Source: a virus
Taxonomy: Duplodnaviria; Caudoviricetes
IMG/VR virus record: IMGVR_UViG_3300050139_000115
Location: 1 to 53,474 of that record
DNA length: 53,474 nt
Strand: one strand, 5' to 3'
Positions 5,596 to 47,469 of this stretch are shown in pieces. The notes below the pieces were generated by a model. That model was not told the origin of the DNA, did not search any database, and saw only the letters and a list, made by a program, of their open reading frames with translations. The position numbers and the translations under genes were made by a program. Numbering within the stretch: the stretch's first letter is position 1; each line of letters begins with the position of its first letter.

Positions 5596-5768
5596 CGCTG
5601 TCCTTTCATGACCTTCCCCACCAACTCCCTTATCCGCATGCGCTTGATCAGCCGCATGGTGCCGGCGCCAAGCAAGCGGTCCTTGTGCATACGTCTGCGC
5701 TCACGTTCCACCCTGGCAATCTCAGTGCGTTCGATCCGCTCGGCCACGTCCGCCGGATCACCGTACAT
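5592..5768 (-). CDS. Small hypothetical protein (start uncertain)
   Basis: MYGDPADVAERIER...; stop overlaps the Q-like start. Confidence 0.45.
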   Translation of the reverse strand: MYGDPADVAERIERTEIARVERERRRMHKDRLLGAGTMRLIKRMRIRELVGKVMKGQR

Positions 5769-5816
5769 CCATGACGGCAGCAAGACTGCGCCGAGGGTTC
5801 GGCCCAACCCGGACAA

Positions 5817-6066
5817 CGGGGGATACGGGGGATACGGGGGCTGTTTACAGCCCATTACCTTTTCTGTCATTTTCTCTTTCCCTATTCCGACGTTCCCTTT
5901 CATCTTCTTATTTTTCATCTTTTCAAAACCTATAAAGAAAGGACCACACGTATCCCCCGTTTGCGTGCCGCACTAATCCGGTGCCATGGCTTGAGTCGAA
6001 AAAAAAGTTTCGCCTGACACTTTTTGGCGGCGGCTGCAAACCTGCCCCGCATGCCCCGATCCCCCG
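5817..6066. other. Putative replication origin (inverted iterons flanking an AT-rich tract)
   Basis: CGGGGGATACGGGGGATACGGGGG at 5817-5840, inverted CGTATCCCCCG at 5949-5959, AT-rich tract between; directly downstream of the helicase. Confidence 0.5.
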
Positions 6067-7563
6067 TTAGCTGATTGGCATTATCTTCACCTTCCACAGT
6101 CTCACGTGATCGCGCTCGCCAGCGCTAACAATTTGTTTTCCATTGACAATGCGGCTTGAGTGGCGCCGCATCCAATAGCCAAGGCGGGCGCTGTCGATGG
6201 CGCCGGCGCGATCTTTTGCCACGTCCCGAAGCACCTGACCGAGCTTAGCTTCGGCTTCGGAAGTGACCGCACTGGTGACTTTCACAATGGCGTCGCGGCC
6301 AGTCATGGCCTCGTCGCCGAAGACCTCCAGCCATGCGTCGCACATACGCATGAGATCGGAGTGCTCCTGATCCTCATCCATCAACACCTGATGCGATAGG
6401 CGCGGGTCCGTGCAACCGACCCACACCAACGGAGCGCGAACCATCCTGGACCACGCCTCAAATCCGCCCCATGGGCCGACCCCTATATCCTCTGGTTTGA
6501 CCCCACTCACGACGAACGCACGCATCAGGGTCAGCCCGGCAATCACGAGCGCGGACCGATGCTCAAAGAAAAAATCCACCGCGTCGTAAGCAAAAGCCCG
6601 GTCTTCTGGCCGTTCCACCTTGGCGTCGAGGCGGCATAACATGGAGCGCGCGCGCAAGTCGCCGACGATCGATAAATGGTTGCCGGTCGCCAAAAACAAC
6701 ACCTGGGTCGGCGCGCGCACCGTGGCCGAGGAGCCGAGCAAGCGTTGTTTGAACTCCTCCGATGTGAGGATCGTGCACAACCATTCACCCTGCAACGGCC
6801 GCGTGACGTTATCGATCAGCACCACAGCATCGCCATCGAGCAACAGCGCGAGCGCGGTCTTTGCGGCTTCATCTTCTTTCGTCGGGTAGTTCATGGCCGG
6901 CGCCTTCGTACCCATGGCGAGGATGGCGATGCAATCAGCAAGTTTCGTCTTGCCGGAGCGCGCGGCGGGTGCCGTCAATCCACCCAAAGGGGCCGATGGC
7001 AGACTACGCCGCACCAGTGCGGTCAGGGCGAGGGATAGCGCGACGCCCAAGTCAACGCGCTCCTGAAATGGGAAAGTTTTGAACGCATCGAGCAGCACGT
7101 CGAGTGCCTCGCCAGCGTCATCGAGGGTCGGCTTATCTTTTACCTGCGGATACGCCGTCCCACAGGGGTCGTACCAGCATTGCGTTGCTGTGTCGTAGCC
7201 GGGCGTCTGCAGCAGCGATCCATCCGGTCTTAGAGTCGGCGTGCCGATCACCGCGCGCAGCGTCGGCAACTTCCAATGCCCCGAGCGCGCAAGGTACGTC
7301 TCGGCGACCATGCCGGGCGCATTGATACGGCGGTATTCCTCGGCGCGTGAATCCCAACGCTGCCAGCGTGCCGCGCGTGTGAGCGTCTCGACCAGGTACG
7401 GCTTGTCCACCATCAAGAGCCCCAGCGATCCCGCGGGCCGACGGAACTGACGCACAGTAGAGGCTTCGCGGATCACGATGCGCGCCAGCATTCCGCTGCG
7501 CTGGAACACGCGCACGTCGCCCTTGAGCAAGGCGGCCTCGGCCTCGTCGACGATGCCAGGCAA
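6067..7563 (-). CDS. Primase-associated P-loop helicase (C-terminal part of split replication gene)
   Basis: Walker A APAARSGKT, Walker B VVLIDNV, ATGN; frame stays open upstream to the A10 run at 7669-7678. Confidence 0.75.
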   Translation of the reverse strand: MPGIVDEAEAALLKGDVRVFQRSGMLARIVIREASTVRQFRRPAGSLGLLMVDKPYLVETLTRAARWQRWDSRAEEYRRINAPGMVAETYLARSGHWKLPTLRAVIGTPTLRPDGSLLQTPGYDTATQCWYDPCGTAYPQVKDKPTLDDAGEALDVLLDAFKTFPFQERVDLGVALSLALTALVRRSLPSAPLGGLTAPAARSGKTKLADCIAILAMGTKAPAMNYPTKEDEAAKTALALLLDGDAVVLIDNVTRPLQGEWLCTILTSEEFKQRLLGSSATVRAPTQVLFLATGNHLSIVGDLRARSMLCRLDAKVERPEDRAFAYDAVDFFFEHRSALVIAGLTLMRAFVVSGVKPEDIGVGPWGGFEAWSRMVRAPLVWVGCTDPRLSHQVLMDEDQEHSDLMRMCDAWLEVFGDEAMTGRDAIVKVTSAVTSEAEAKLGQVLRDVAKDRAGAIDSARLGYWMRRHSSRIVNGKQIVSAGERDHVRLWKVKIMPIS

Positions 7564-8321
7564 TTGGCCGTCGCGCCAAACGATCTCTGGCAGCGTGAAA
7601 TCGTCGGGGTCATCCGGTGGGCCGCCCTTCTGAGCTGGCGTTTCCGCTCCAGTACCCGCGGTCCCGTCTTTTTTTTTTCCGCATGGCCATTTGGCAAAGC
7701 GTTACCCATGATCAGCGCCTCGGCCTGCGCGGCCGTCCAGCCGGCTTCGAACGCCACGCCGAAATTCCAGCCCTCGGGCCAATCCGCGGTGACCGGCACA
7801 TCGACCTCAATTACCCCAGCAGCATAGCTGCGCAGAATCTTCGCGATCTTGGCGCGTGCTTTGTTTGTGCCAGCATCGGGCACAATCCACACCATCCGGC
7901 CGCGCAGCGGTGAAAAGTCCACGTCGTCGATCTTGCGCACACCGCCCGTCCAGGCGAGCGATGCGTAATGCGGCATCCATTCCCGCGCGGCATCAGCCGA
8001 GGCGCAATCGAACGTGATCATCACGGGGTACGGCGCCGCCAGCTCGGCGAGACGATGCAGGCCGTACAGCGGGCGCAAACTCGGGAACTGCACCCAACGC
8101 CACGCCCTCTCGTGTGCTGCGTTCGAACACCAGGTCAGCGTCTGCTGGATTTTCTCGCCGGTCGATCGGTAAAACGTGCAGACGTAACCGAGCGTGTTAT
8201 CTGCTTGGTCGCGGAAGTGGAAAATCTCTTTCGGCGTGCCGCGCACCTGGTGATCAAACCTTGGCGCGGGGGTGTCCTCTGGCACGGGAATGATCGGCGT
8301 CCATTGCTTGGGGCTTGTCAT
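7473..8321 (-). CDS. Toprim-like primase domain (N-terminal part of split replication gene)
   Basis: RPLYGL, W.GG..., VDFSPLRGR.VWIVPD, PEGW resemble phage primase Toprim regions. Confidence 0.65.
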   Translation of the reverse strand: MTSPKQWTPIIPVPEDTPAPRFDHQVRGTPKEIFHFRDQADNTLGYVCTFYRSTGEKIQQTLTWCSNAAHERAWRWVQFPSLRPLYGLHRLAELAAPYPVMITFDCASADAAREWMPHYASLAWTGGVRKIDDVDFSPLRGRMVWIVPDAGTNKARAKIAKILRSYAAGVIEVDVPVTADWPEGWNFGVAFEAGWTAAQAEALIMGNALPNGHAEKKKTGPRVLERKRQLRRAAHRMTPTISRCQRSFGATANCLASSTRPRPPCSRATCACSSAAECWRAS

Positions 8322-9649
8322 ACGAACATCGCCTGTTGGCGTTGGGCATTCTCAATGCGCTCGCACGCTATAGCGAAGTAAGCCGGGTCGAGGTCTATCC
8401 CGATAAACCGAAAGCCCTCGCGTTCAGTCGCCTTGCCAGTCGAACCACTGCCCATGAATGGATCAAGCACCGTTCCGCCTGGCGGTGTCACCAAGCGGCA
8501 TAGGTAGCGCATCAGGGCAGTCGGTTTTACGGTTGGGTGATGGTTCTGCGCCTCCCTGTTGGTGTTTTCCGATTGGAACGTGCCGGGCGACTGTTCACCG
8601 CTTGACCAGTTCAGCGGCTTAGTCGCCATGCCATGCAGGTCTTCATTACGGTCGTCGCGGCTTGCTTTGGCACAGTAGAAAAAACGGGCTGCACTCCCTG
8701 CGTCGCCGCGTGGATTGAACGTCTCGCGCGCGCCGTAGTCGCCGAAGACGTTGACGCTATCCTTGGTGCCGTGCTCAGGCCCGACGCTGCGCTGCTGTCC
8801 CGGTGCCCGCGGAAATACCGCCAGCACTTCCTCGCTGCCGTCGTGAATCAGGTTGGCGGGCCAGCGGCCGAGATCAGTTTCGCCGACGGCCTTTGAGGTT
8901 TGCAGCGAGCCGTCCACGCGCCCAGCCAGGGCGTTACCGGCGTACTCCACGTCGTCACGCATAGGCGCAACCTCTCGCAAGGGCCGCTTGCCCCCCCCCA
9001 TGCGCATGCTTGTTGAGCCGGTCGCGTTATCGTCTCTCGTGCCGTCATGGCCGCGATCGCCACTGAAGTTTCGAGCATAGGCATCGTCTTCGACCGGAAC
9101 CCTGCAGCCGTCAATGTTCAGCCCGCCAGTTCCGAACTGCTGCACGTTCTCCCCGACGTTGCCTACCAGCGGCTTACGCGCCATCACGATAGGCTCCCAT
9201 GCTGGTTTCAGCGCAGTGCCGCCCCACGAGCCATTACGTGATTTTGGAAAACCGGAACCGAACGCCCAGCCGATTTGATCGCGGATCTCAAAGCCTGCAT
9301 CCTCAATCGCGCAGGCCAGCCGGTGATAGGTTCGAGTTCCGCCGAAGGCGAGCAGGTAAGCGCCGGGCTTCGCAACACGCAGCACTTCGGCCCATATTGC
9401 AGGGTCGTGCGCAACGTTTCCGCCGTCCCATCCCATCCCCATAAATCCGGTTGTAACGCGGGCGCGCCCATATGGCGATTCAAGGTTAACGGATGCTGGT
9501 CCAGTGCCGCCCTTCTTTCCGGTCGTCAGGTGGTAGGGTGGATCGGTCACGATGGCGTCAACACTGTCCGCGGGCATCGCTGCCATGGCCTCGCGGCAGT
9601 CGCCCAAGTGCAACATCGCATTGCCGATGACGACCGGATTCACATCCAC
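8318..9649 (-). CDS. Site-specific DNA methyltransferase (N4-C/N6-A, beta class)
   Basis: DAIVTDPPY, HPTVKP, VLDPFMGSGSTG. Confidence 0.92.
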   Translation of the reverse strand: MDVNPVVIGNAMLHLGDCREAMAAMPADSVDAIVTDPPYHLTTGKKGGTGPASVNLESPYGRARVTTGFMGMGWDGGNVAHDPAIWAEVLRVAKPGAYLLAFGGTRTYHRLACAIEDAGFEIRDQIGWAFGSGFPKSRNGSWGGTALKPAWEPIVMARKPLVGNVGENVQQFGTGGLNIDGCRVPVEDDAYARNFSGDRGHDGTRDDNATGSTSMRMGGGKRPLREVAPMRDDVEYAGNALAGRVDGSLQTSKAVGETDLGRWPANLIHDGSEEVLAVFPRAPGQQRSVGPEHGTKDSVNVFGDYGARETFNPRGDAGSAARFFYCAKASRDDRNEDLHGMATKPLNWSSGEQSPGTFQSENTNREAQNHHPTVKPTALMRYLCRLVTPPGGTVLDPFMGSGSTGKATEREGFRFIGIDLDPAYFAIACERIENAQRQQAMFV

Positions 9650-38493: not shown

Positions 38494-38996
38494 CTAGAGC
38501 TTTTCGAAGTTTTGAATTGACAGTTGCAGCGCTGTCTTTTCCGGTTTTAGATCAGGCGATTTCCACGGCGGCGCACAGCCTAGCTTTTCGGCGCGGTGCG
38601 ATTCAGACAGATATTCACCCGACAGACGGCGCAGCGTCTTCGCTTCCCATGGTTGTAGATTGACGCCTGTTTCCTGTTGCCAGGCGATTAAGTCTTTGCT
38701 GGTGATAGGCCCCGCGCCCATTCCGGCCGCGACGGTTGGCCCAACGTCGAGCAGGTAGCCAACCAGATATGCGCCCTGTTCCAGCGGCGGCATCTCCGGC
38801 ATATACGTATCGCGCATTGCCTCGACAATCGCTTCCGAAACCCACCCAGCCCATTCCGGTGCCCATTCTTCCCGTATGCGCTCAAGTCGCGAAATCTGCG
38901 GTTCCTTTGATTTGTCGTGCTTCGCCCTCTCCGGGGTTGCGTTCAGATACGCGACCTGCTTTATGTAGAGGGCAAGGTCGCCGAAGAGGGCTTGCT
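38494..38996 (-). CDS. Tail assembly chaperone GT extension (-1 frame)
   Basis: Frame of ORF 38494..38817 is open back to the CAATTTC at 38997-39003. Confidence 0.65.
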
Positions 38997-39377
38997 GAAA
39001 TTGCTGTCATCGTCCAGGAACTTGATGACCTGTTTCGTGATGTAGCCGAGCTTCGGATTCGCGTACAGTTCTGCAGGCGGGACTGGAAAATTGTTGATTA
39101 CCAGCGTGCAAGCGGTGAGCTTCTCGACCATTTCCGCATCTGCCGCCTCAGCAGCCCGCTTGTCCACCTTGCCGCGAAATAGGGCCTGCAAGCGAAGCTG
39201 CGCCTGTTGGCCTGCCTTGTGCAGCGCCTTGACCGCTTGGCGGCTTCCCGACCCGTATAGCGCGATTGTGACTGGGGTTTCGCCGTCGGCCCCAATCAAG
39301 TCATCGTCGCCCTTGGCGTTTTGAACCGTTAGAACTGCGGTTTCCTCAAGCTCGTATTTCGATACATCGAAGTCCAT
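38961..39377 (-). CDS. Tail assembly chaperone G
   Basis: Between tail tube and TMP; AAGGA RBS; ends ...DDSNF. Confidence 0.75.
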   Translation of the reverse strand: MDFDVSKYELEETAVLTVQNAKGDDDLIGADGETPVTIALYGSGSRQAVKALHKAGQQAQLRLQALFRGKVDKRAAEAADAEMVEKLTACTLVINNFPVPPAELYANPKLGYITKQVIKFLDDDSNFSKPSSATLPST

Positions 39378-40370: not shown

Positions 40371-40887
40371 CAACTTTGCCCGACTCAACACGCTCGACCT
40401 CGATCCCAGTCGCGCGCAACTCGGCGGTAATCTGCTCCAGCCCTTCGGTGAAGCCGTAAAACCCAAACTCGCCGTGCGTCTTGTCGTACGCTTGCGGGTC
40501 GAAACCAAGCAGCACGATCTTGACGGCGCCGGCAAGGGCGGCAATGCGGATCGCGGCGAGCGCGTTGTTGCGGATCTCGATCGTGTGGCCGGGCTCGATC
40601 GTGACGGTCTCGTACATCATTCCTGGATACAACGCGTCGATGTCACACTCAACTCCACAGATGCGCAGGCCCTTGAAACCGGCTGCGGCCTCCCAAAACG
40701 GATGATGCGGATCGAGCGCAACGAACATGTCGGCCCAGGGCGCAAACTGCACGGCGCGATTAACCGCGATGGTCTTGTAGCCGCGGGCGCCGTCGGCAAC
40801 AGCTTGGCTCATGCTTGGGGCATTGCCGAGGATGGCGACGGTCTCGCCTTTCCATAGATCGTTCGGGACAGTCCACGGTTTCGTCAT
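40360..40887 (-). CDS. DUF115/MptE/Maf-like (sugar-transferase fold) protein
   Basis: GETVAILGNAPSM, IAVN, PWAD...D, IVLLGFD; AGGAG RBS. Confidence 0.65.
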   Translation of the reverse strand: MTKPWTVPNDLWKGETVAILGNAPSMSQAVADGARGYKTIAVNRAVQFAPWADMFVALDPHHPFWEAAAGFKGLRICGVECDIDALYPGMMYETVTIEPGHTIEIRNNALAAIRIAALAGAVKIVLLGFDPQAYDKTHGEFGFYGFTEGLEQITAELRATGIEVERVESGKVDGR

Positions 40888-43198: not shown

Positions 43199-43882
43199 TC
43201 ACACCCCGAGGCCTGTCCGGTAATTCCACCACAAGTCATGCACGCGCATCGGTAAAGAGAACGTCTGCGCAGCGCTCACTTCCTCGCGGTTCATGAACAG
43301 CGAGCCGATGACGAGCAGCATTCCGGCCTTAACGAGAAACGGCACAGCAGCCGGCGCCATGCCAGCAACAAACTGCACAATCACAGCGTCGTCCAAACCG
43401 TAGCCACTCCGCCTGAAGTTTTCGCTCTCGCTTGAGGCATTCGAGCCAAAACCTACTGGCCACATATCCATCTCATGGTCGAGCCGGTGATAAACAGCCG
43501 GCCACGTCTGCCCGATCTTCAGCCGCAGCTTCGGCTCGTTAAGGTTTCCGTTCAACTCATACACGGTGTCGGCAAGCGTCTGCCGAGCGCCGGCCGCGTC
43601 CAGATACGTCACACTCACAATCGAAGTCACCGGCGGGAATAGCGGAACACCAAAATTGCGCCCGCGCGCCTCACGTGTCGATACGGCGAATGCGCGCTGG
43701 CAAAACTGTTCGGCCATTTCGCGCGCGGTGCTGATCAGGCGTGTAACGTCGGCGTCGGTCGGGTGCGCCGTCACATCAGCCGGGTCGGCCGTGATCTTCA
43801 GATGGGAATTTGCCTCACCGAGCGTGATCGGTTCCACGATGGTAGTTTCAGAATCTATGCTCACGGGGCCCTCCAGTAGCAT
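43199..43882 (-). CDS. Head-tail connector (gp6-like)
   Basis: EPITL.EA..HL, LI..ARE.AE.F, VP..VK...LL.IG.L..NRE. Confidence 0.85.
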   Translation of the reverse strand: MLLEGPVSIDSETTIVEPITLGEANSHLKITADPADVTAHPTDADVTRLISTAREMAEQFCQRAFAVSTREARGRNFGVPLFPPVTSIVSVTYLDAAGARQTLADTVYELNGNLNEPKLRLKIGQTWPAVYHRLDHEMDMWPVGFGSNASSESENFRRSGYGLDDAVIVQFVAGMAPAAVPFLVKAGMLLVIGSLFMNREEVSAAQTFSLPMRVHDLWWNYRTGLGV

Positions 43883-44391
43883 TGACACGGTGCCGATTCG
43901 ATCACATGCAGCCCCGCCGCTTCAATCGCCTTTGCCACACCAGCGCAGTTCTTCCAATGCCAATCATCGAACACCACCAGGCCGCCTGACACCATGCGCG
44001 GGCGCAACCATACGATTGCGTCCGCCGTACTTTTCTCCAGATCCATGTCCACATGGGCGAAAGCCACCTGATCGTGCAGCCCTTCGGCGGATTGAGGGAA
44101 CAACCCGGCGATCAGGGTGACGTTCCCCGGCATCCCGGCCTGGACGGTGGTCAGAGTCGTGTCGCCGAATTCGCCCGGCTTGTGGAAGTCGATCGCCCGC
44201 CATGATTCGGCCGGCATGCCGGCGAAGGTGTCGAACCCGTAACAGGACCGCCGAGGCGAGGCCTGGGCTAGGGCTTTCAGAGTTCCACCCTGGTACACCC
44301 CAAGCTCCACGATAGCGCCCTGCAGGCCCTCCACCGTAGCCAGCAGCCGCAACAAGGCCGCGGACTTGGCCGGCGTCATCAGTGTTTGCAT
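43861..44391 (-). CDS. TylF/MycF-like O-methyltransferase
   Basis: GAIVELGVYQGG, YGFDTF.GMP, FAHVD.D, GG.VVFDD. Confidence 0.85.
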   Translation of the reverse strand: MQTLMTPAKSAALLRLLATVEGLQGAIVELGVYQGGTLKALAQASPRRSCYGFDTFAGMPAESWRAIDFHKPGEFGDTTLTTVQAGMPGNVTLIAGLFPQSAEGLHDQVAFAHVDMDLEKSTADAIVWLRPRMVSGGLVVFDDWHWKNCAGVAKAIEAAGLHVIESAPCQCYWRAP

Positions 44392-45929
44392 GTTTCCTCG
44401 ATAAATTTTGCAATCCGCTCCCGCGCCGCCGGCACATCGATCGCCTTGTCGTGGTTGCAACCATGCGACCAACACGCGCACGGCTTCACCGGCTCGATGG
44501 CGCACCAGGGCGAATACCGCGCACCGGCTGAAAACGACCGCGCATCCTCGAATCCGCCGAAAATAGCAATGACTGGCGTGCTGACCGCCTGCGCCAACAC
44601 CAGCGCAAAGCCGGGCGAGCAGAACACTAGATTCGCCGCCGCCGTGAGCGCGGCAATCGTCTCAAAATCCAACTCGCCGCGGTGAAACTCGGCGTCGGCC
44701 TTGATCTGCGGGCCGATGAGCCACTCAATTCCGTCCATCAGGTCCGCCAGACTGATCACGAAATACCGATCGCGGATGCCTGCGATCAACGCGTGGCTGG
44801 CTGCCAGGTCGGGGTTACGCGCGACCTTCGCCCGCGCCGAGCCGTTGTTCTGGTCCGAAATTGCGACCGGCGGCCGGTAGATCAGCAGCGGCTTCGTCGG
44901 TTTCAACTTCGCCAGCAGCGCGTCGGCCTTCGCTTTCCATTCCGGCTTGATTGGCATGCGGAAGTCGCCAACCGGAACGCCGCATACATGGGCCATCACG
45001 CCGAGTACGGAGCCGCAGTCCTTCACACCACGCGGCATCATGGACAGGTAACCGTTTTCAATCGTCCGCGCGCCTCGCGGTGGCTGCGTGGCGCCGTAGA
45101 GTGCTGCCGCGCGCACCTCATTCTTCGCCATCCAGCAAATCCGCGACTTTTTCGGCACTAGGTGCAGACGCGGCATATCCCAAAACACCTGCGGCCAGGA
45201 AGTCGTCAGCCAAACCTCGTTCGACTTCATCAACTCGCGCACAAGCGCCCGTTCGTGCAGGTTGTCTCCGAGGCCGTGCATGCCATGCAGGAGCAGCGCC
45301 TGCTTACCCGGCGCCAGCGCTTCCTCGATCGGCAGCCGCTCAAAACACGTGATCGCCGTGCGCCTGGTAGCGTTGACGACCTCGACTCCGTGCGAGCGCA
45401 GATCCGCACCGAGCTGCACCATGCGCCGGCCCCACTCCGGCATCGTCCCCAGGTTTGGCAAATTCCCTTCGTGGTCGCCGTGGTGATGGCTCTCACCCTT
45501 CGGCCCGCGCTGCATGTCGTAGCCGAGCAGGATGATCCGCGCGGCACCCCACATATAGGCGAGGTTAATCGCCTGGTAGCCGCTGTTCAGGCCGGTATGG
45601 ATGCGGCCTGGCTTCGTCCCCAGCCCAGGCTCGTCAACCGCCTCTACGTGGTTGATGACGCCTCGGAGCCGGTCGGCGCACGTCCAGCATTCCCCGGTGA
45701 AGTTCCGCTCGACTTCCTCGCTGTACACTGTCCACCAGCGCATGTCTGCCGCGTAGCACGCGTCGGCCCATAGCGCCTTGCGAAATGTCGTGCAGACTGC
45801 GATTACGCGCCGCTCTTGCGGTGCTTTCCGGCGCCAGGCTTTGACAAGAGCGACTTCCCCATCGCTAAGGCTTGGTCCACTGGCGAGGCAGACGACGGTG
45901 GAACCTTTCCATCGTCCGGCGCTTTTCCC
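44379..45929 (-). CDS. Two-domain DUF115/Maf-like + GT9-like glycosyltransferase (probably expressed as a -1 frameshift fusion)
   Basis: VVCLASGPSL, NSGYQA.NLA, IILLGYD, VVNAT; then GLGD and LAQAV.TPV.AIFG; no in-frame start near the domain N-terminus. Confidence 0.75.
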   Translation of the reverse strand, partial: GKSAGRWKGSTVVCLASGPSLSDGEVALVKAWRRKAPQERRVIAVCTTFRKALWADACYAADMRWWTVYSEEVERNFTGECWTCADRLRGVINHVEAVDEPGLGTKPGRIHTGLNSGYQAINLAYMWGAARIILLGYDMQRGPKGESHHHGDHEGNLPNLGTMPEWGRRMVQLGADLRSHGVEVVNATRRTAITCFERLPIEEALAPGKQALLLHGMHGLGDNLHERALVRELMKSNEVWLTTSWPQVFWDMPRLHLVPKKSRICWMAKNEVRAAALYGATQPPRGARTIENGYLSMMPRGVKDCGSVLGVMAHVCGVPVGDFRMPIKPEWKAKADALLAKLKPTKPLLIYRPPVAISDQNNGSARAKVARNPDLAASHALIAGIRDRYFVISLADLMDGIEWLIGPQIKADAEFHRGELDFETIAALTAAANLVFCSPGFALVLAQAVSTPVIAIFGGFEDARSFSAGARYSPWCAIEPVKPCACWSHGCNHDKAIDVPAARERIAKFIEETCKH

Positions 45930-46123
45930 GCTTCGGCCACGATAGCTGCGGCACCGCGCACGCTCAGCGCCTGATCGACGCGGCGCGCTATGAGCTTCAC
46001 GCGCACGAGGCCGGCGCGCTCCAAGTCGCGCGCAAGGCCCTCTTCCATCAGCATCGGCCGGCCTTCGTCCGCGTTGATGTGGCCGTGGACAAAGGAGGTC
46101 AACGGCACTGCTTCGACTTGCAT
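45803..46123 (-). CDS. Small capsid-adjacent protein containing slippery site G GGA AAA
   Basis: GGAG RBS; A.DLE.AGLV motif; directly after the major capsid gene. Confidence 0.75.
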   Translation of the reverse strand: MQVEAVPLTSFVHGHINADEGRPMLMEEGLARDLERAGLVRVKLIARRVDQALSVRGAAAIVAEAGKAPDDGKVPPSSASPVDQALAMGKSLLSKPGAGKHRKSGA

Positions 46124-46135
46124 TATCTTTTCTCC

Positions 46136-46163
46136 AAAAAAAGGCCCGGCCGAAACCGGGCCT
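46136..46163 (-). terminator. Terminator after major capsid gene
   Basis: AGGCCCGG-TTTCGG-CCGGGCCT then TTTTTT. Confidence 0.75.
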
Positions 46164-46182
46164 GGTTGCATCACTCGACGGA

Positions 46183-47469
46183 TTACGTCGCCGGCAGGTC
46201 AGTATTCTTGATGAAACTTTCCGGCCGATACACCGCGAGTCCCAGTCTCTCTTCGTTGCGCACCGAAACCATGTTGCGCACAAAGTTGTCCTGATCTTCG
46301 CTCGATATCACGACGTTCGAATCCTCCCGGTCGAACACCTGCGCGCCAAGCTTGAACGCGCCGACAAGCGCCGTGTCCACCGTCATCGCCGGAGTATCCA
46401 CTACCGGCCGCCCCCACAAAGCAGGTTGCGCCAGCGATTGCGGATTCGCGAAGATGTAGGCGCCGATATCGTTCTTCGTCAACTCGATCGCCGCCCAGTC
46501 CGACGGGTGCATCACGATACCGGTCGACGGAAATAGCGCGAGTTCTGCCTGCAACAGCATCAGGCGAATCACGTCGATCTTGGTCGCTTTCGCAATCGCG
46601 ATCGGTGCGCTAAACGCAGTTGCCTGCGTATAGATGCCGTTCAGGTTGTTCCCGACACCGGAGCCCTTCAGCAATTGCGTTTCTTCTTTGAATTGCAGGC
46701 CGTAGCGGAGCCGTTGGTCGATCATCGATTGCAGTTGCGCAAAGTCATCGAGGATCTGCTTCGATGCCTTGATCCAGTGCGCGACCGTGACGACAGCCGA
46801 CTGCATGAGTTCGTAGGTGATGTCCGATTCCGGCTTGAGCGTCGTTTCCGAAACGGTCGCGGCGTTGTTGGTAAACCCAGTTTCCTTCACGTACTGGATC
46901 AGGTTCGATCCGGTACGACCAGGGCTGATCAGGTCGCGCACCGTCATACGCCGCTGCGGAATGCCGATGATGCCAGGCTGAAAGTCCGGCGCCACCCCCG
47001 TGGTCGTCGTGTTCGTTGTCGGGATGCTGGTGAGCGCCGCCTTGACCGGCAGCACGTAACCGGACTGCGCGCTCTTCATGCCGCCAGCCCCGATCCACGC
47101 CTTGAATCCGTCGTCCGTAACGAGCATTTCCCCGAGCGTCTGCGCCTGCGGCTTTTCCTCGGACCCGCGCCGCGCCGCCTTCTGCTCCACCTCGAGCAGC
47201 CGCGCCTGCAGCTCGCCCTGCTTGACCAGCATTTCGTCGACCTTCGGCTTGTCGGCCGCGTACATGTCGCCGTATTTCTTCGCCTCGGCCAGAGCCTTTT
47301 CGCCGGCCTCTTTAACCTGGTCGCCGATCTTGTCCAGCGCGGCCTTGATTTCTTTCGGGTCCATGTCGTACAAAACCATGCCGACGCGCCCCATGTACCC
47401 GGTCAACGCGCGGTGGAGTGATTCCCCGAGCGCTACCGCCACGGCAACAGCCATTACTTTCAGTTTCAT
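46183..47469 (-). CDS. Major capsid protein (HK97 fold, delta domain, extra N-terminal leader)
   Basis: TVRDLI.PG, V.E...KPES, AHW...SKQIL.D, EE.QLL.G.G, NF..NM...R.EER. Confidence 0.93.
   Translation of the reverse strand: MKLKVMAVAVAVALGESLHRALTGYMGRVGMVLYDMDPKEIKAALDKIGDQVKEAGEKALAEAKKYGDMYAADKPKVDEMLVKQGELQARLLEVEQKAARRGSEEKPQAQTLGEMLVTDDGFKAWIGAGGMKSAQSGYVLPVKAALTSIPTTNTTTTGVAPDFQPGIIGIPQRRMTVRDLISPGRTGSNLIQYVKETGFTNNAATVSETTLKPESDITYELMQSAVVTVAHWIKASKQILDDFAQLQSMIDQRLRYGLQFKEETQLLKGSGVGNNLNGIYTQATAFSAPIAIAKATKIDVIRLMLLQAELALFPSTGIVMHPSDWAAIELTKNDIGAYIFANPQSLAQPALWGRPVVDTPAMTVDTALVGAFKLGAQVFDREDSNVVISSEDQDNFVRNMVSVRNEERLGLAVYRPESFIKNTDLPAT

Follow-up and report, generated by a model that had tools for sequence, protein, structure and literature searches.

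The tail chaperone genes G/GT of phage lambda slip by -1 on GGGAAAG within the late structural operon and give a short and a C-terminally extended product with a common N-terminus, the offset between the two frames being kept while the sequences drift. T7 gene 10A/10B likewise uses a -1 frameshift. Recoding within the structural module, with a minor long and a major short form, is common to T7 10A/10B and the cps/tsh genes of Listeria phages. In the Listeria phages PSA, A118 and A500, the shift is +1 (PMC5009743). We describe here a locus of this kind in which the extension would be an enzyme. The stretch of DNA analyzed (the window) is the complete 53,474-bp IMG/VR virus record IMGVR_UViG_3300050139_000115, with direct terminal repeats present; in it, a small open reading frame (ORF) of 106 amino acids (aa) follows the major capsid protein gene and overlaps a 516-aa frame for a glycosyltransferase-like enzyme. 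With a rough probability of 0.8, we conclude from sequence comparison that the enzyme is made by a conserved programmed -1 frameshift from the small capsid-adjacent ORF. A model-made first-pass annotation of the same DNA had proposed such a shift, and the comparative evidence given below strongly supports it.

Like lambda G/GT, the locus would slip by -1 on a heptamer of the G_GGA_AAN type in a late structural operon; it differs in that the site follows the capsid gene instead of preceding the tape measure gene, other genes are involved, what would be appended is an enzyme with two domains, 514 residues long, and not a chaperone domain, and the last base of the heptamer is A. The extended proteins of T7 and the Listeria phages are capsid or tail subunits, whereas in the present locus a small accessory protein would be extended by an enzyme. 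Glycosyltransferase genes amid capsid and tail genes are also found in mycobacteriophages, where two putative glycosyltransferases were taken to suggest capsid glycosylation in a genome announcement (PMC11256854); in the available part of that source no frameshift or adaptor domain is reported, the hosts are actinobacterial (Gram-positive-type), and the enzymes belong to other families. A full-text literature search of main articles returned no paper on this frameshift, on DUF7210 or on virion proteins of phage PAJU2, in line with the first-pass annotation, which knew of no description. As far as searched, the arrangement appears new to print and common to dozens of related phages, including Pseudomonas phage D3; to these the window adds a clade with G_GGA_AAA and the appending of both enzyme domains in one predicted polypeptide.

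All features discussed lie on the minus strand. The small ORF (P0001, 45803..46123) begins with ATG at 46123, has GGAG 9 nucleotides (nt) upstream, and encodes the 106-aa zero-frame product; in related loci, homologs of this ORF are found at the corresponding place. The enzyme frame (P0002, 516 aa, 44379..45929; DUF115/Maf-like and GT9-like GT-B, according to PHROG, AlphaFold2, and Foldseek) is open from 46307, and between 46202 and 45803 it contains none of the codons ATG, GTG, TTG, CTG, ATT, ATC, and ATA; its few candidate starts further upstream lie within the capsid gene, before a terminator-like hairpin. The first ATG after the heptamer is at 45743, 62 codons on and past the GPSL motif. 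At Gly66-Lys67 the small ORF reads GCG GGA AAA, so that G_GGA_AAA (45923..45929, read 45929-45923) stands in X_XXY_YYZ register; a -1 slip on it would join residues 1–67 of the small ORF to P0002 from residue 3 onward, 581 aa in all. The absence of a start near the first motif, the in-frame heptamer, and a fusion of about 581 aa had each been noted at first pass and were borne out by reading the frames, the absence extending to near-cognate codons. Because the enzyme frame has no start codon, and strand beta1 and the nucleotide-binding loop are encoded inside the overlap, no other route of expression presents itself for the enzyme. A lone in-register heptamer within about 70 codons is not significant; the weight comes from the comparison of relatives.

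The first-pass annotation had named an indel error in the reads as a ground for giving up the shift; no indel was found. Of four sequencing runs checked, one gave nothing and two gave short contigs only. The contig from the probable source run is identical to the window and is not independent support; a 263-nt contig from a different study spans 45922-46184 without gaps. Eight independent contigs have the identical frame offset, and an assembly error behind this offset is unlikely.

In the clade of the window, G_GGA_AAA occupies one aligned position in seven of eight members (the window, L003, L004, L028, L029, L033/L045, and L011), the eighth (L068) having G_GGA_AAC; heptamer and frame offset are thus kept in relatives, a check that had been proposed at first pass. 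Among six clade members, 19 of the 21 columns just upstream of the heptamer vary and none of its seven columns does; in each of the six members compared, the distance from the heptamer start to the zero-frame stop is exactly 124 nt. In the dual-coded overlap of small-ORF tail and enzyme N-terminus (45803..45922), compared over 117 nt, each enzyme codon position contributes 39 columns, of which 16, 17, and 29 are variable at positions 1, 2, and 3; pairwise differences there average 0.21, 0.20, and 0.43, respectively. This third-position excess argues for purifying selection on the enzyme frame, beginning at the heptamer. Further upstream the frame is not conserved, and in L004 and L011 it is closed 15–18 codons before the heptamer. 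The sequence features, the conservation of frame offset and heptamer, and the selection on the enzyme frame are thus observed, whereas slippage itself and its efficiency are inferred.

The wider comparison took in 2 close viral loci, 22 genome loci, the best 80 of 154 viral loci, 14 more, and three cultured-phage records. Of these 122 loci (window included), 111 have an N-terminal enzyme match, 5 lack a recognizable GPS-type motif, and 17 duplicates were dropped, which left 89 distinct loci. The enzyme frame has no ATG, GTG, or TTG within 35 codons before the GPS motif in 42 of the 89. Every one of these 42 start-less loci has an ORF that spans the motif with the enzyme frame at -1; the third frame is also open in 9, as high GC content allows, and a +1-only arrangement occurs in none of the 42. 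The other 47 loci do have a nearby start. In 39 of them no ORF spans the motif, and the enzyme begins just a few residues ahead of it, mostly at another place in the structural operon; three (L102, D3, and PP9W2) look like frameshift cases with a chance start, which brings the frameshift-type loci to 45; two are spurious (L085 and L096); and three have a +1-frame overlap with the upstream gene. Some distant homologs with their own start or with an in-frame fusion, which the first-pass annotation had listed as grounds against a shift, do exist, but in other clades and mostly at other genomic positions. In L006, L007, L039, and L041, the enzyme frame is interrupted by a stop only about 13 codons ahead of the motif; the shift would thus be confined to these codons, among which there is no start. 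A quick maximum-likelihood tree with 89 rows was built from the first enzyme domain; on it, the frameshift label requires 8 changes (at least 4 forced) versus a shuffled mean of 30.2, with none of 500 shuffles as low, and the window falls in a 7-row clade with support 99, all of the frameshift type. The frameshift loci come from prophages of Alpha-, Beta-, and Gammaproteobacteria.

Candidate slip sites, which are not mapped sites and were chosen by a fixed priority rule where a locus offered several, are distributed over the 45 frameshift-type loci as follows: G_GGA_AAA, 8; G_GGA_AAC, 1; C_CCA_AAG, 2 (D3 and PP9W2); A_AAA_AAG, 2 (L032 and L102); C_CCT_TTN, 6; G_GGC_CCT, 3; A_AAC_CCY, 5; bare C_CCY, 16; T_TTT, 2. 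As read from the sequences, all 45 loci thus carry known or plausible shift motifs. The Atkins 2016 review (PMC5009743) gives Z_ZZN as the minimal -1 site, counts G_GGA_AAG and C_CCA_AAG among the sequences that shift very readily in Escherichia coli, and ascribes G_GGA_AAC and G_GGA_AAG to g-t genes of archaeal viruses.

In the sister clade (L005, L006, L037, L044, L046, L048, L053, L058, and others), a bare C_CCU/C_CCC proline tetramer lies about 41 nt before the GPS motif, mostly as GAC CCU, and a strong GC-rich hairpin follows about 5 nt later. The stem of the C_CCY clade is formed by pairing of GGCCGCUGGC with GCCAGCGGCC, is GC-rich, and begins about 5 nt after the slip codon; its energy is -20 to -32 kcal/mol, and only 0.2–6.6% of local windows are as stable. 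In this stem, 87.9% of cells are paired (19.7–56.8% when partner columns are slid) and two pairs are compensatory, 5 of 500 shuffles reaching the covariation score, a result tempered by relatedness and coding constraints. A bare C_CCU with hairpin would be an unusual minimal -1 site. The low-GC locus L102 carries a run of about ten A, including A_AAA_AAG, some 53–59 nt before the motif; slippage on it could be ribosomal or transcriptional.

The nearest parallel in a cultured phage, a homologous arrangement, is D3 orf6.5/orf7 (also PP9W2, PMG1, and relatives), with a capsid gene, a DUF7210-like ORF, and a DUF115-like frame at -1 without a proper start. In D3 (L107, record positions 5691-6409), orf6.5 carries C_CCA_AAG in register, and the orf7 frame is open for about 50 codons upstream of the annotated Ile start, the GPSL motif being encoded there. 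The D3 locus differs in its heptamer and in having only the DUF115 domain at this place, the GT-B and methyltransferase genes lying further downstream. Public records annotate two coding sequences in each case: orf6.5 and orf7 in D3, two 'hypothetical proteins' in PP9W2.

The proposed course of expression is as follows. Ribosomes would start at ATG 46123 and translate the small ORF; most would reach the stop at 45803 and release the 106-aa protein, predicted to consist of a 44-residue DUF7210-like domain and a disordered tail. A fraction would slip back one base on G_GGA_AAA at 45929-45923, within the disordered linker, perhaps assisted by a 10-bp hairpin 4–5 nt downstream. The -1 product of 581 aa would comprise the N-domain, the linker, a Maf/DUF115-like domain, and a GT9-like GT-B domain. 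With lower confidence, the N-domain may bind the major capsid protein, so that a set fraction of it would bring the enzyme to the procapsid; enzyme and co-transcribed methyltransferase would then place a methylated glycan on a virion protein.

The assignment of the enzyme combines profile and fold comparison. P0002 matches phrog_4603 ('alpha-2,3-sialyltransferase') over residues 15–206 (E 2e-42) and phrog_6804 over residues 212–461 (E 2.6e-23); the Pfam MptE/Maf-like family DUF115 (PF01973) stays below its gathering score on P0002 (18 bits vs 34.6, E 0.0025), and one homolog, P0061, has a precomputed PF01973 match. The AlphaFold2 model has a predicted local distance difference test (pLDDT) of 92.6 and a predicted template-modeling (pTM) score of 0.81. 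Strand beta1 of the model is formed by residues 11–15, with the GPSL loop directly after; since beta1 lies there, a start at ATG 45743, as used by gene callers, would leave the product without the central part of its first domain. Their product (P0003, 454 aa) covers 88% of the query, the coverage also given for an NCBI 'glycosyltransferase family 9 protein'. In Foldseek searches, the C-terminal half matches a Veillonella GT9 protein (3tov, E 2.7e-9), TibC (4rap, E 1.3e-8), and lipopolysaccharide (LPS) heptosyltransferases including heptosyltransferase II (1psw), with probability 1.00 and E ranging from 2.7e-9 to 3.4e-8 over 3tov, 4rap, and 1psw. The second half is thus predicted to have a GT9-type GT-B fold, a similarity at fold level only: the same fold as in the protein O-heptosyltransferases TibC/AAH and the LPS heptosyltransferases (GT9), but with no sequence match to a PDB chain, Pfam GT9, or NCBIfam. 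At the sequence level, the enzyme gave no Pfam GT9 and no NCBIfam match, and its profile found chance matches only among PDB sequences (E at least 0.4). Some databases label homologs as ADP-heptose:LPS heptosyltransferase or GT9 family protein. A Cys/His cluster is conserved near the C-terminus of the enzyme, C484 and C486 being invariant.

In the AlphaFold2 model of the small protein, residues 1–44 have pLDDT above 90 and are predicted to form four short strands, a helix, and a fifth strand; the remainder is at about 50 and predicted disordered, and the slip site falls in this stretch. The N-terminal domain was delimited as residues 1–48 (45980..46123) by the model and an alignment of relatives. 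Seven of 30 aligned relatives of the N-domain match Pfam DUF7210 (PF23843; best E 4.9e-08), and one relative scores 25.1 bits (cut-off 27). The N-domain is best described as DUF7210-like, not as a member of the family, the link being made by transitive alignment only. Searched against 1.84 billion proteins, the N-domain profile finds 632 representatives at E at most 0.001. Since 143 of the best 150 representatives are shorter than 150 aa with the domain N-terminal, and at least 52 of these 150 carry a tail in which the enzyme's conserved first motif is read in the +1 frame, the N-domain appears to be a widespread protein in its own right, a large subset of which overlaps the enzyme frame. The first 42 residues of an in-frame fusion, P0041, match the small-ORF profile (hhalign 92.5%, E 4.7e-7), and P0047, P0061, and P0064 are fusion-like by eye. 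Fused longer forms of the small protein were not found among 8000 candidates of a word-index search, which is weak evidence; a tblastn search of cultured phages with a small-protein representative gave no match at E at most 0.001. The nearest folds of the N-domain, all non-significant, are GINS B-domains, the N-domain of ribosomal protein L9, and the C-domain of lambda gpFI; atlas leads are DUF7210 and, faintly, Packaging_FI (score 0.80, in a cluster with 16% of members Packaging_FI).

Several observations weigh against the frameshift, or against the fusion protein as drawn above. The fusion protein is a deduction from sequence comparison. G_GGA_AAA occurs 0 times in the available text of PMC5009743, and its last base differs from the well-tested G_GGA_AAG. 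In 16 relatives a tetramer is the only site, so that members of the family may differ in mechanism. The copy of the N-domain in the window reached no Pfam family and has no DUF7210 match at E at most 1; its fold matches are all non-significant (best E 0.097), and a second in-frame candidate, P0036, matches the N-domain profile weakly (9% probability). The enzyme of PAJU2 has its own start and lacks the N-domain; enzyme function as such thus does not depend on the fusion. The hairpin downstream of the site (45889..45918, by RNA folding; 10-bp stem, 10-nt loop), a candidate for the stimulatory structure expected 5–9 nt downstream of a -1 site, pairs 45918-45909 with 45898-45889 and begins 4–5 nt after the heptamer; its 81-nt fold has z = 0.00 relative to shuffles, and the 48 nt downstream of the heptamer fold with -15.7 kcal/mol, 21% of locus windows being at least as stable. 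It is ordinary for GC-rich DNA. Within the clade, 92.5% of its stem cells are paired over 8 sequences (16.3–61.3% when partner columns are slid), and no compensatory change was found in these 8, the shuffle control being uninformative (500 of 500); because of this lack, coding constraints could explain the conservation of the stem. The hairpin that the first-pass annotation placed 5 nt downstream is therefore present but is neither exceptionally stable nor covarying in this clade, and it was dropped as an independent frameshift signal on the grounds of z = 0.00, no compensatory change, and an uninformative shuffle.

For the clade of the window, there is a hint of a pseudoknot: a possible second helix includes one covarying pair, a score that 27 of 500 shuffles reach; the pair is G-C four times, C-G once, U-A once, and unpaired twice, and both columns are synonymous third positions of Gly codons. 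The 5' arm is the same as in the C_CCY clade, with another 3' partner; when the C_CCY stem was imposed on the clade of the window, only 67.2% of cells were paired, and this candidate was rejected.

Set against the frameshift are accounts in which the two frames are joined by other means or not at all. A small ORF and an enzyme that were once one in-frame gene or two genes, now parted by decay or by an indel in the contig, would be in keeping with the in-frame fusions and self-starting forms among homologs, and the window is a metagenome contig with full-length read support only from the probable source run. Decay or a stray indel would hardly produce the identical -1 offset in 42 of 42 start-less loci (+1-only in 0), third-position variation indicative of purifying selection on the enzyme frame from the heptamer on, 516 intact codons whose product folds with pLDDT 92.6, or a zero-frame stop at identical distance in six clade members, and we give this account next to no weight. 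Nearly as improbable is a change of frame in the RNA, by transcriptional slippage or editing at a run of A and not on the ribosome: the run of about ten A at the site in L102 makes polymerase slippage plausible there, whereas the window has only four A in a row and 16 relatives have a bare C_CCY without homopolymer. For transcriptional slippage to be productive, a run must be about 7 or more long. The annotation as two separate proteins, the enzyme beginning at an unusual start codon, by reinitiation, or as a truncated functional form at ATG 45743, is what gene callers offer (P0003 of 454 aa, and many homologs likewise), and orf7 of D3 is annotated separately, beginning with an Ile codon. Yet no near-cognate start is found in the 400 nt before 45803; ATG 45743 is not conserved, L003 and L004 having different downstream GTGs; and the stretch before it is conserved as protein, forming beta1 and the GPSL loop. 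Termination-reinitiation could not supply the GPSL motif, because the stop of the small ORF lies downstream of it. We consider separate proteins distinctly unlikely.

A different kind of alternative accepts the frameshift and concerns its use. The slip may serve regulation or stoichiometry only, with the N-domain as a linker-bearing leader and a target other than the virion, for example a host surface glycan; this we regard as a realistic possibility, somewhat short of even odds. In its favor, capsid binding is weakly supported, enzymes that have their own start in other clades stand at other positions of the structural operon, and a glycosylated virion protein of these phages was not found in print. 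A mere leader is less easily reconciled with an N-domain that is widespread as an independent small protein (143 of the best 150 representatives below 150 aa), with the tight synteny with the capsid gene (42 of 45), and with a cassette placed inside the late structural operon.

The context of the capsid gene bears on a possible delivery of the enzyme to the head. The end of the capsid gene lies just upstream in 42 of 45 frameshift loci versus 2 of 44 other loci, and in frameshift loci the capsid C-terminus is mostly 216–340 nt before the motif. The N-domain (residues 1–48, 28-row alignment) and the capsid protein (residues 120–428, 31 rows) scored 0.50 as a predicted complex, the best of three controls scoring 0.00; runs agree in at least 95% of contacts, and partner pLDDT is at least 78. 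In the benchmark of this score, 58 of 80 solved complexes passed the mark, as did 2 of 110 mismatched pairs; passing scores of 0.60 or under belonged to only 7 of those 80 complexes and to both mismatches. The prediction thus weakly supports binding of the N-domain to the capsid protein. Docking on the head, as suggested in the first-pass annotation, draws weak support from capsid synteny and this score, and stays a tentative idea.

The gene of lambda gpFI directly follows capsid gene E. It thus has the same position as the small ORF, and the C-domain of gpFI (2LSM) is among the non-significant fold matches of the N-domain (E 0.13, template-modeling score 0.54 by target); the folded domain of gpFI is C-terminal, whereas here it is N-terminal. 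In lambda, gpFI bridges the capsid and the terminase-DNA complex, and capsid mutations bypass it (2026 review, PMC13595911). Kinship of gpFI and the N-domain is at most a lead from fold comparison. A broader proposal would make the DUF7210-like domain a general capsid-docking module, in function similar to the capsid-binding end of gpFI; in phages of Proteobacteria, the conserved -1 shift would set the ratio of free to enzyme-bearing adaptor, so that a few glycosyltransferases are brought to each procapsid. The outcome would be virion-tethered glycosylation and methylation of the head from its surface, undescribed for phages of Gram-negative hosts. We hold this proposal to be rather doubtful as a whole.

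In PAJU2, ORF010 (L109, record positions 7780-8349) is a self-starting homolog of the first enzyme domain and follows the head-tail adaptor gene. Its record carries the label 'structural protein'; should virion proteomics underlie this label, the enzyme would accompany the particle even where it has no N-domain.

The order of genes on the minus strand is ClpP-type protease, HK97-type capsid protein, terminator-like hairpin, 106-aa ORF, enzyme frame, TylF-like methyltransferase, and head-tail adaptor. The major capsid protein gene (46183..47469; HK97 type; Pfam Phage_capsid PF05065, E 1.8e-56) lies directly upstream of the small ORF. In the gap between them, a consensus scan marks a terminator-like hairpin with T-run (46142..46163, a pattern match only), with a 9-pair stem including 7 G-C pairs at 46163-46142, followed by seven T; a similar hairpin was seen by eye in L003 and L004. 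This hairpin could lower the expression of everything 3' of the capsid gene. The TylF-like O-methyltransferase gene (43861..44505; Pfam TylF, E 4.5e-14; Methyltransf_24, E 2.2e-12) has its likely ATG at 44391, as read from the ORF translation, and overlaps the last enzyme codons (44379-44391), which suggests translational coupling of the two; some homologs of the enzyme carry a fused methyltransferase domain (PF13578). The head-tail adaptor gene (43199..43888; phrog_442, E 1.6e-15) bounds the inserted enzyme cassette on its downstream side.

A real slip would mean that an entire family of phage enzymes is wrongly annotated by gene finders and in curated records, among them orf7 of D3 and the NCBI 'GT9 family' proteins that start about 60 residues late; D3, a phage of the textbook era, would carry an unnoticed programmed frameshift, and an enzyme would join the short list of things that phages append by recoding. 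Virion glycosylation by phages of Gram-negative bacteria would become directly testable. The homologous slip sites (four canonical heptamers, C_CCU_UUN, and bare C_CCU with GC-rich hairpin) form a natural series for the study of bacterial -1 sites.

Two further observations were made in the window. Its tail chaperone pair (38963-39006, minus strand) is in a -1 arrangement, the T-like frame being open from 39006 and the G-like stop lying at 38963; no X_XXY_YYZ heptamer was found in this overlap of about 43 nt, only U_UUC at 39000, so that the site is no guide to heptamer usage. A 178-codon open frame among the head-tail genes contains, at 40450-40857 (minus strand), a second region that resembles the first enzyme domain, though weakly (E 2e-5, 32% identity with P0002 residues 6–152); this frame may encode a DUF115-like paralog.

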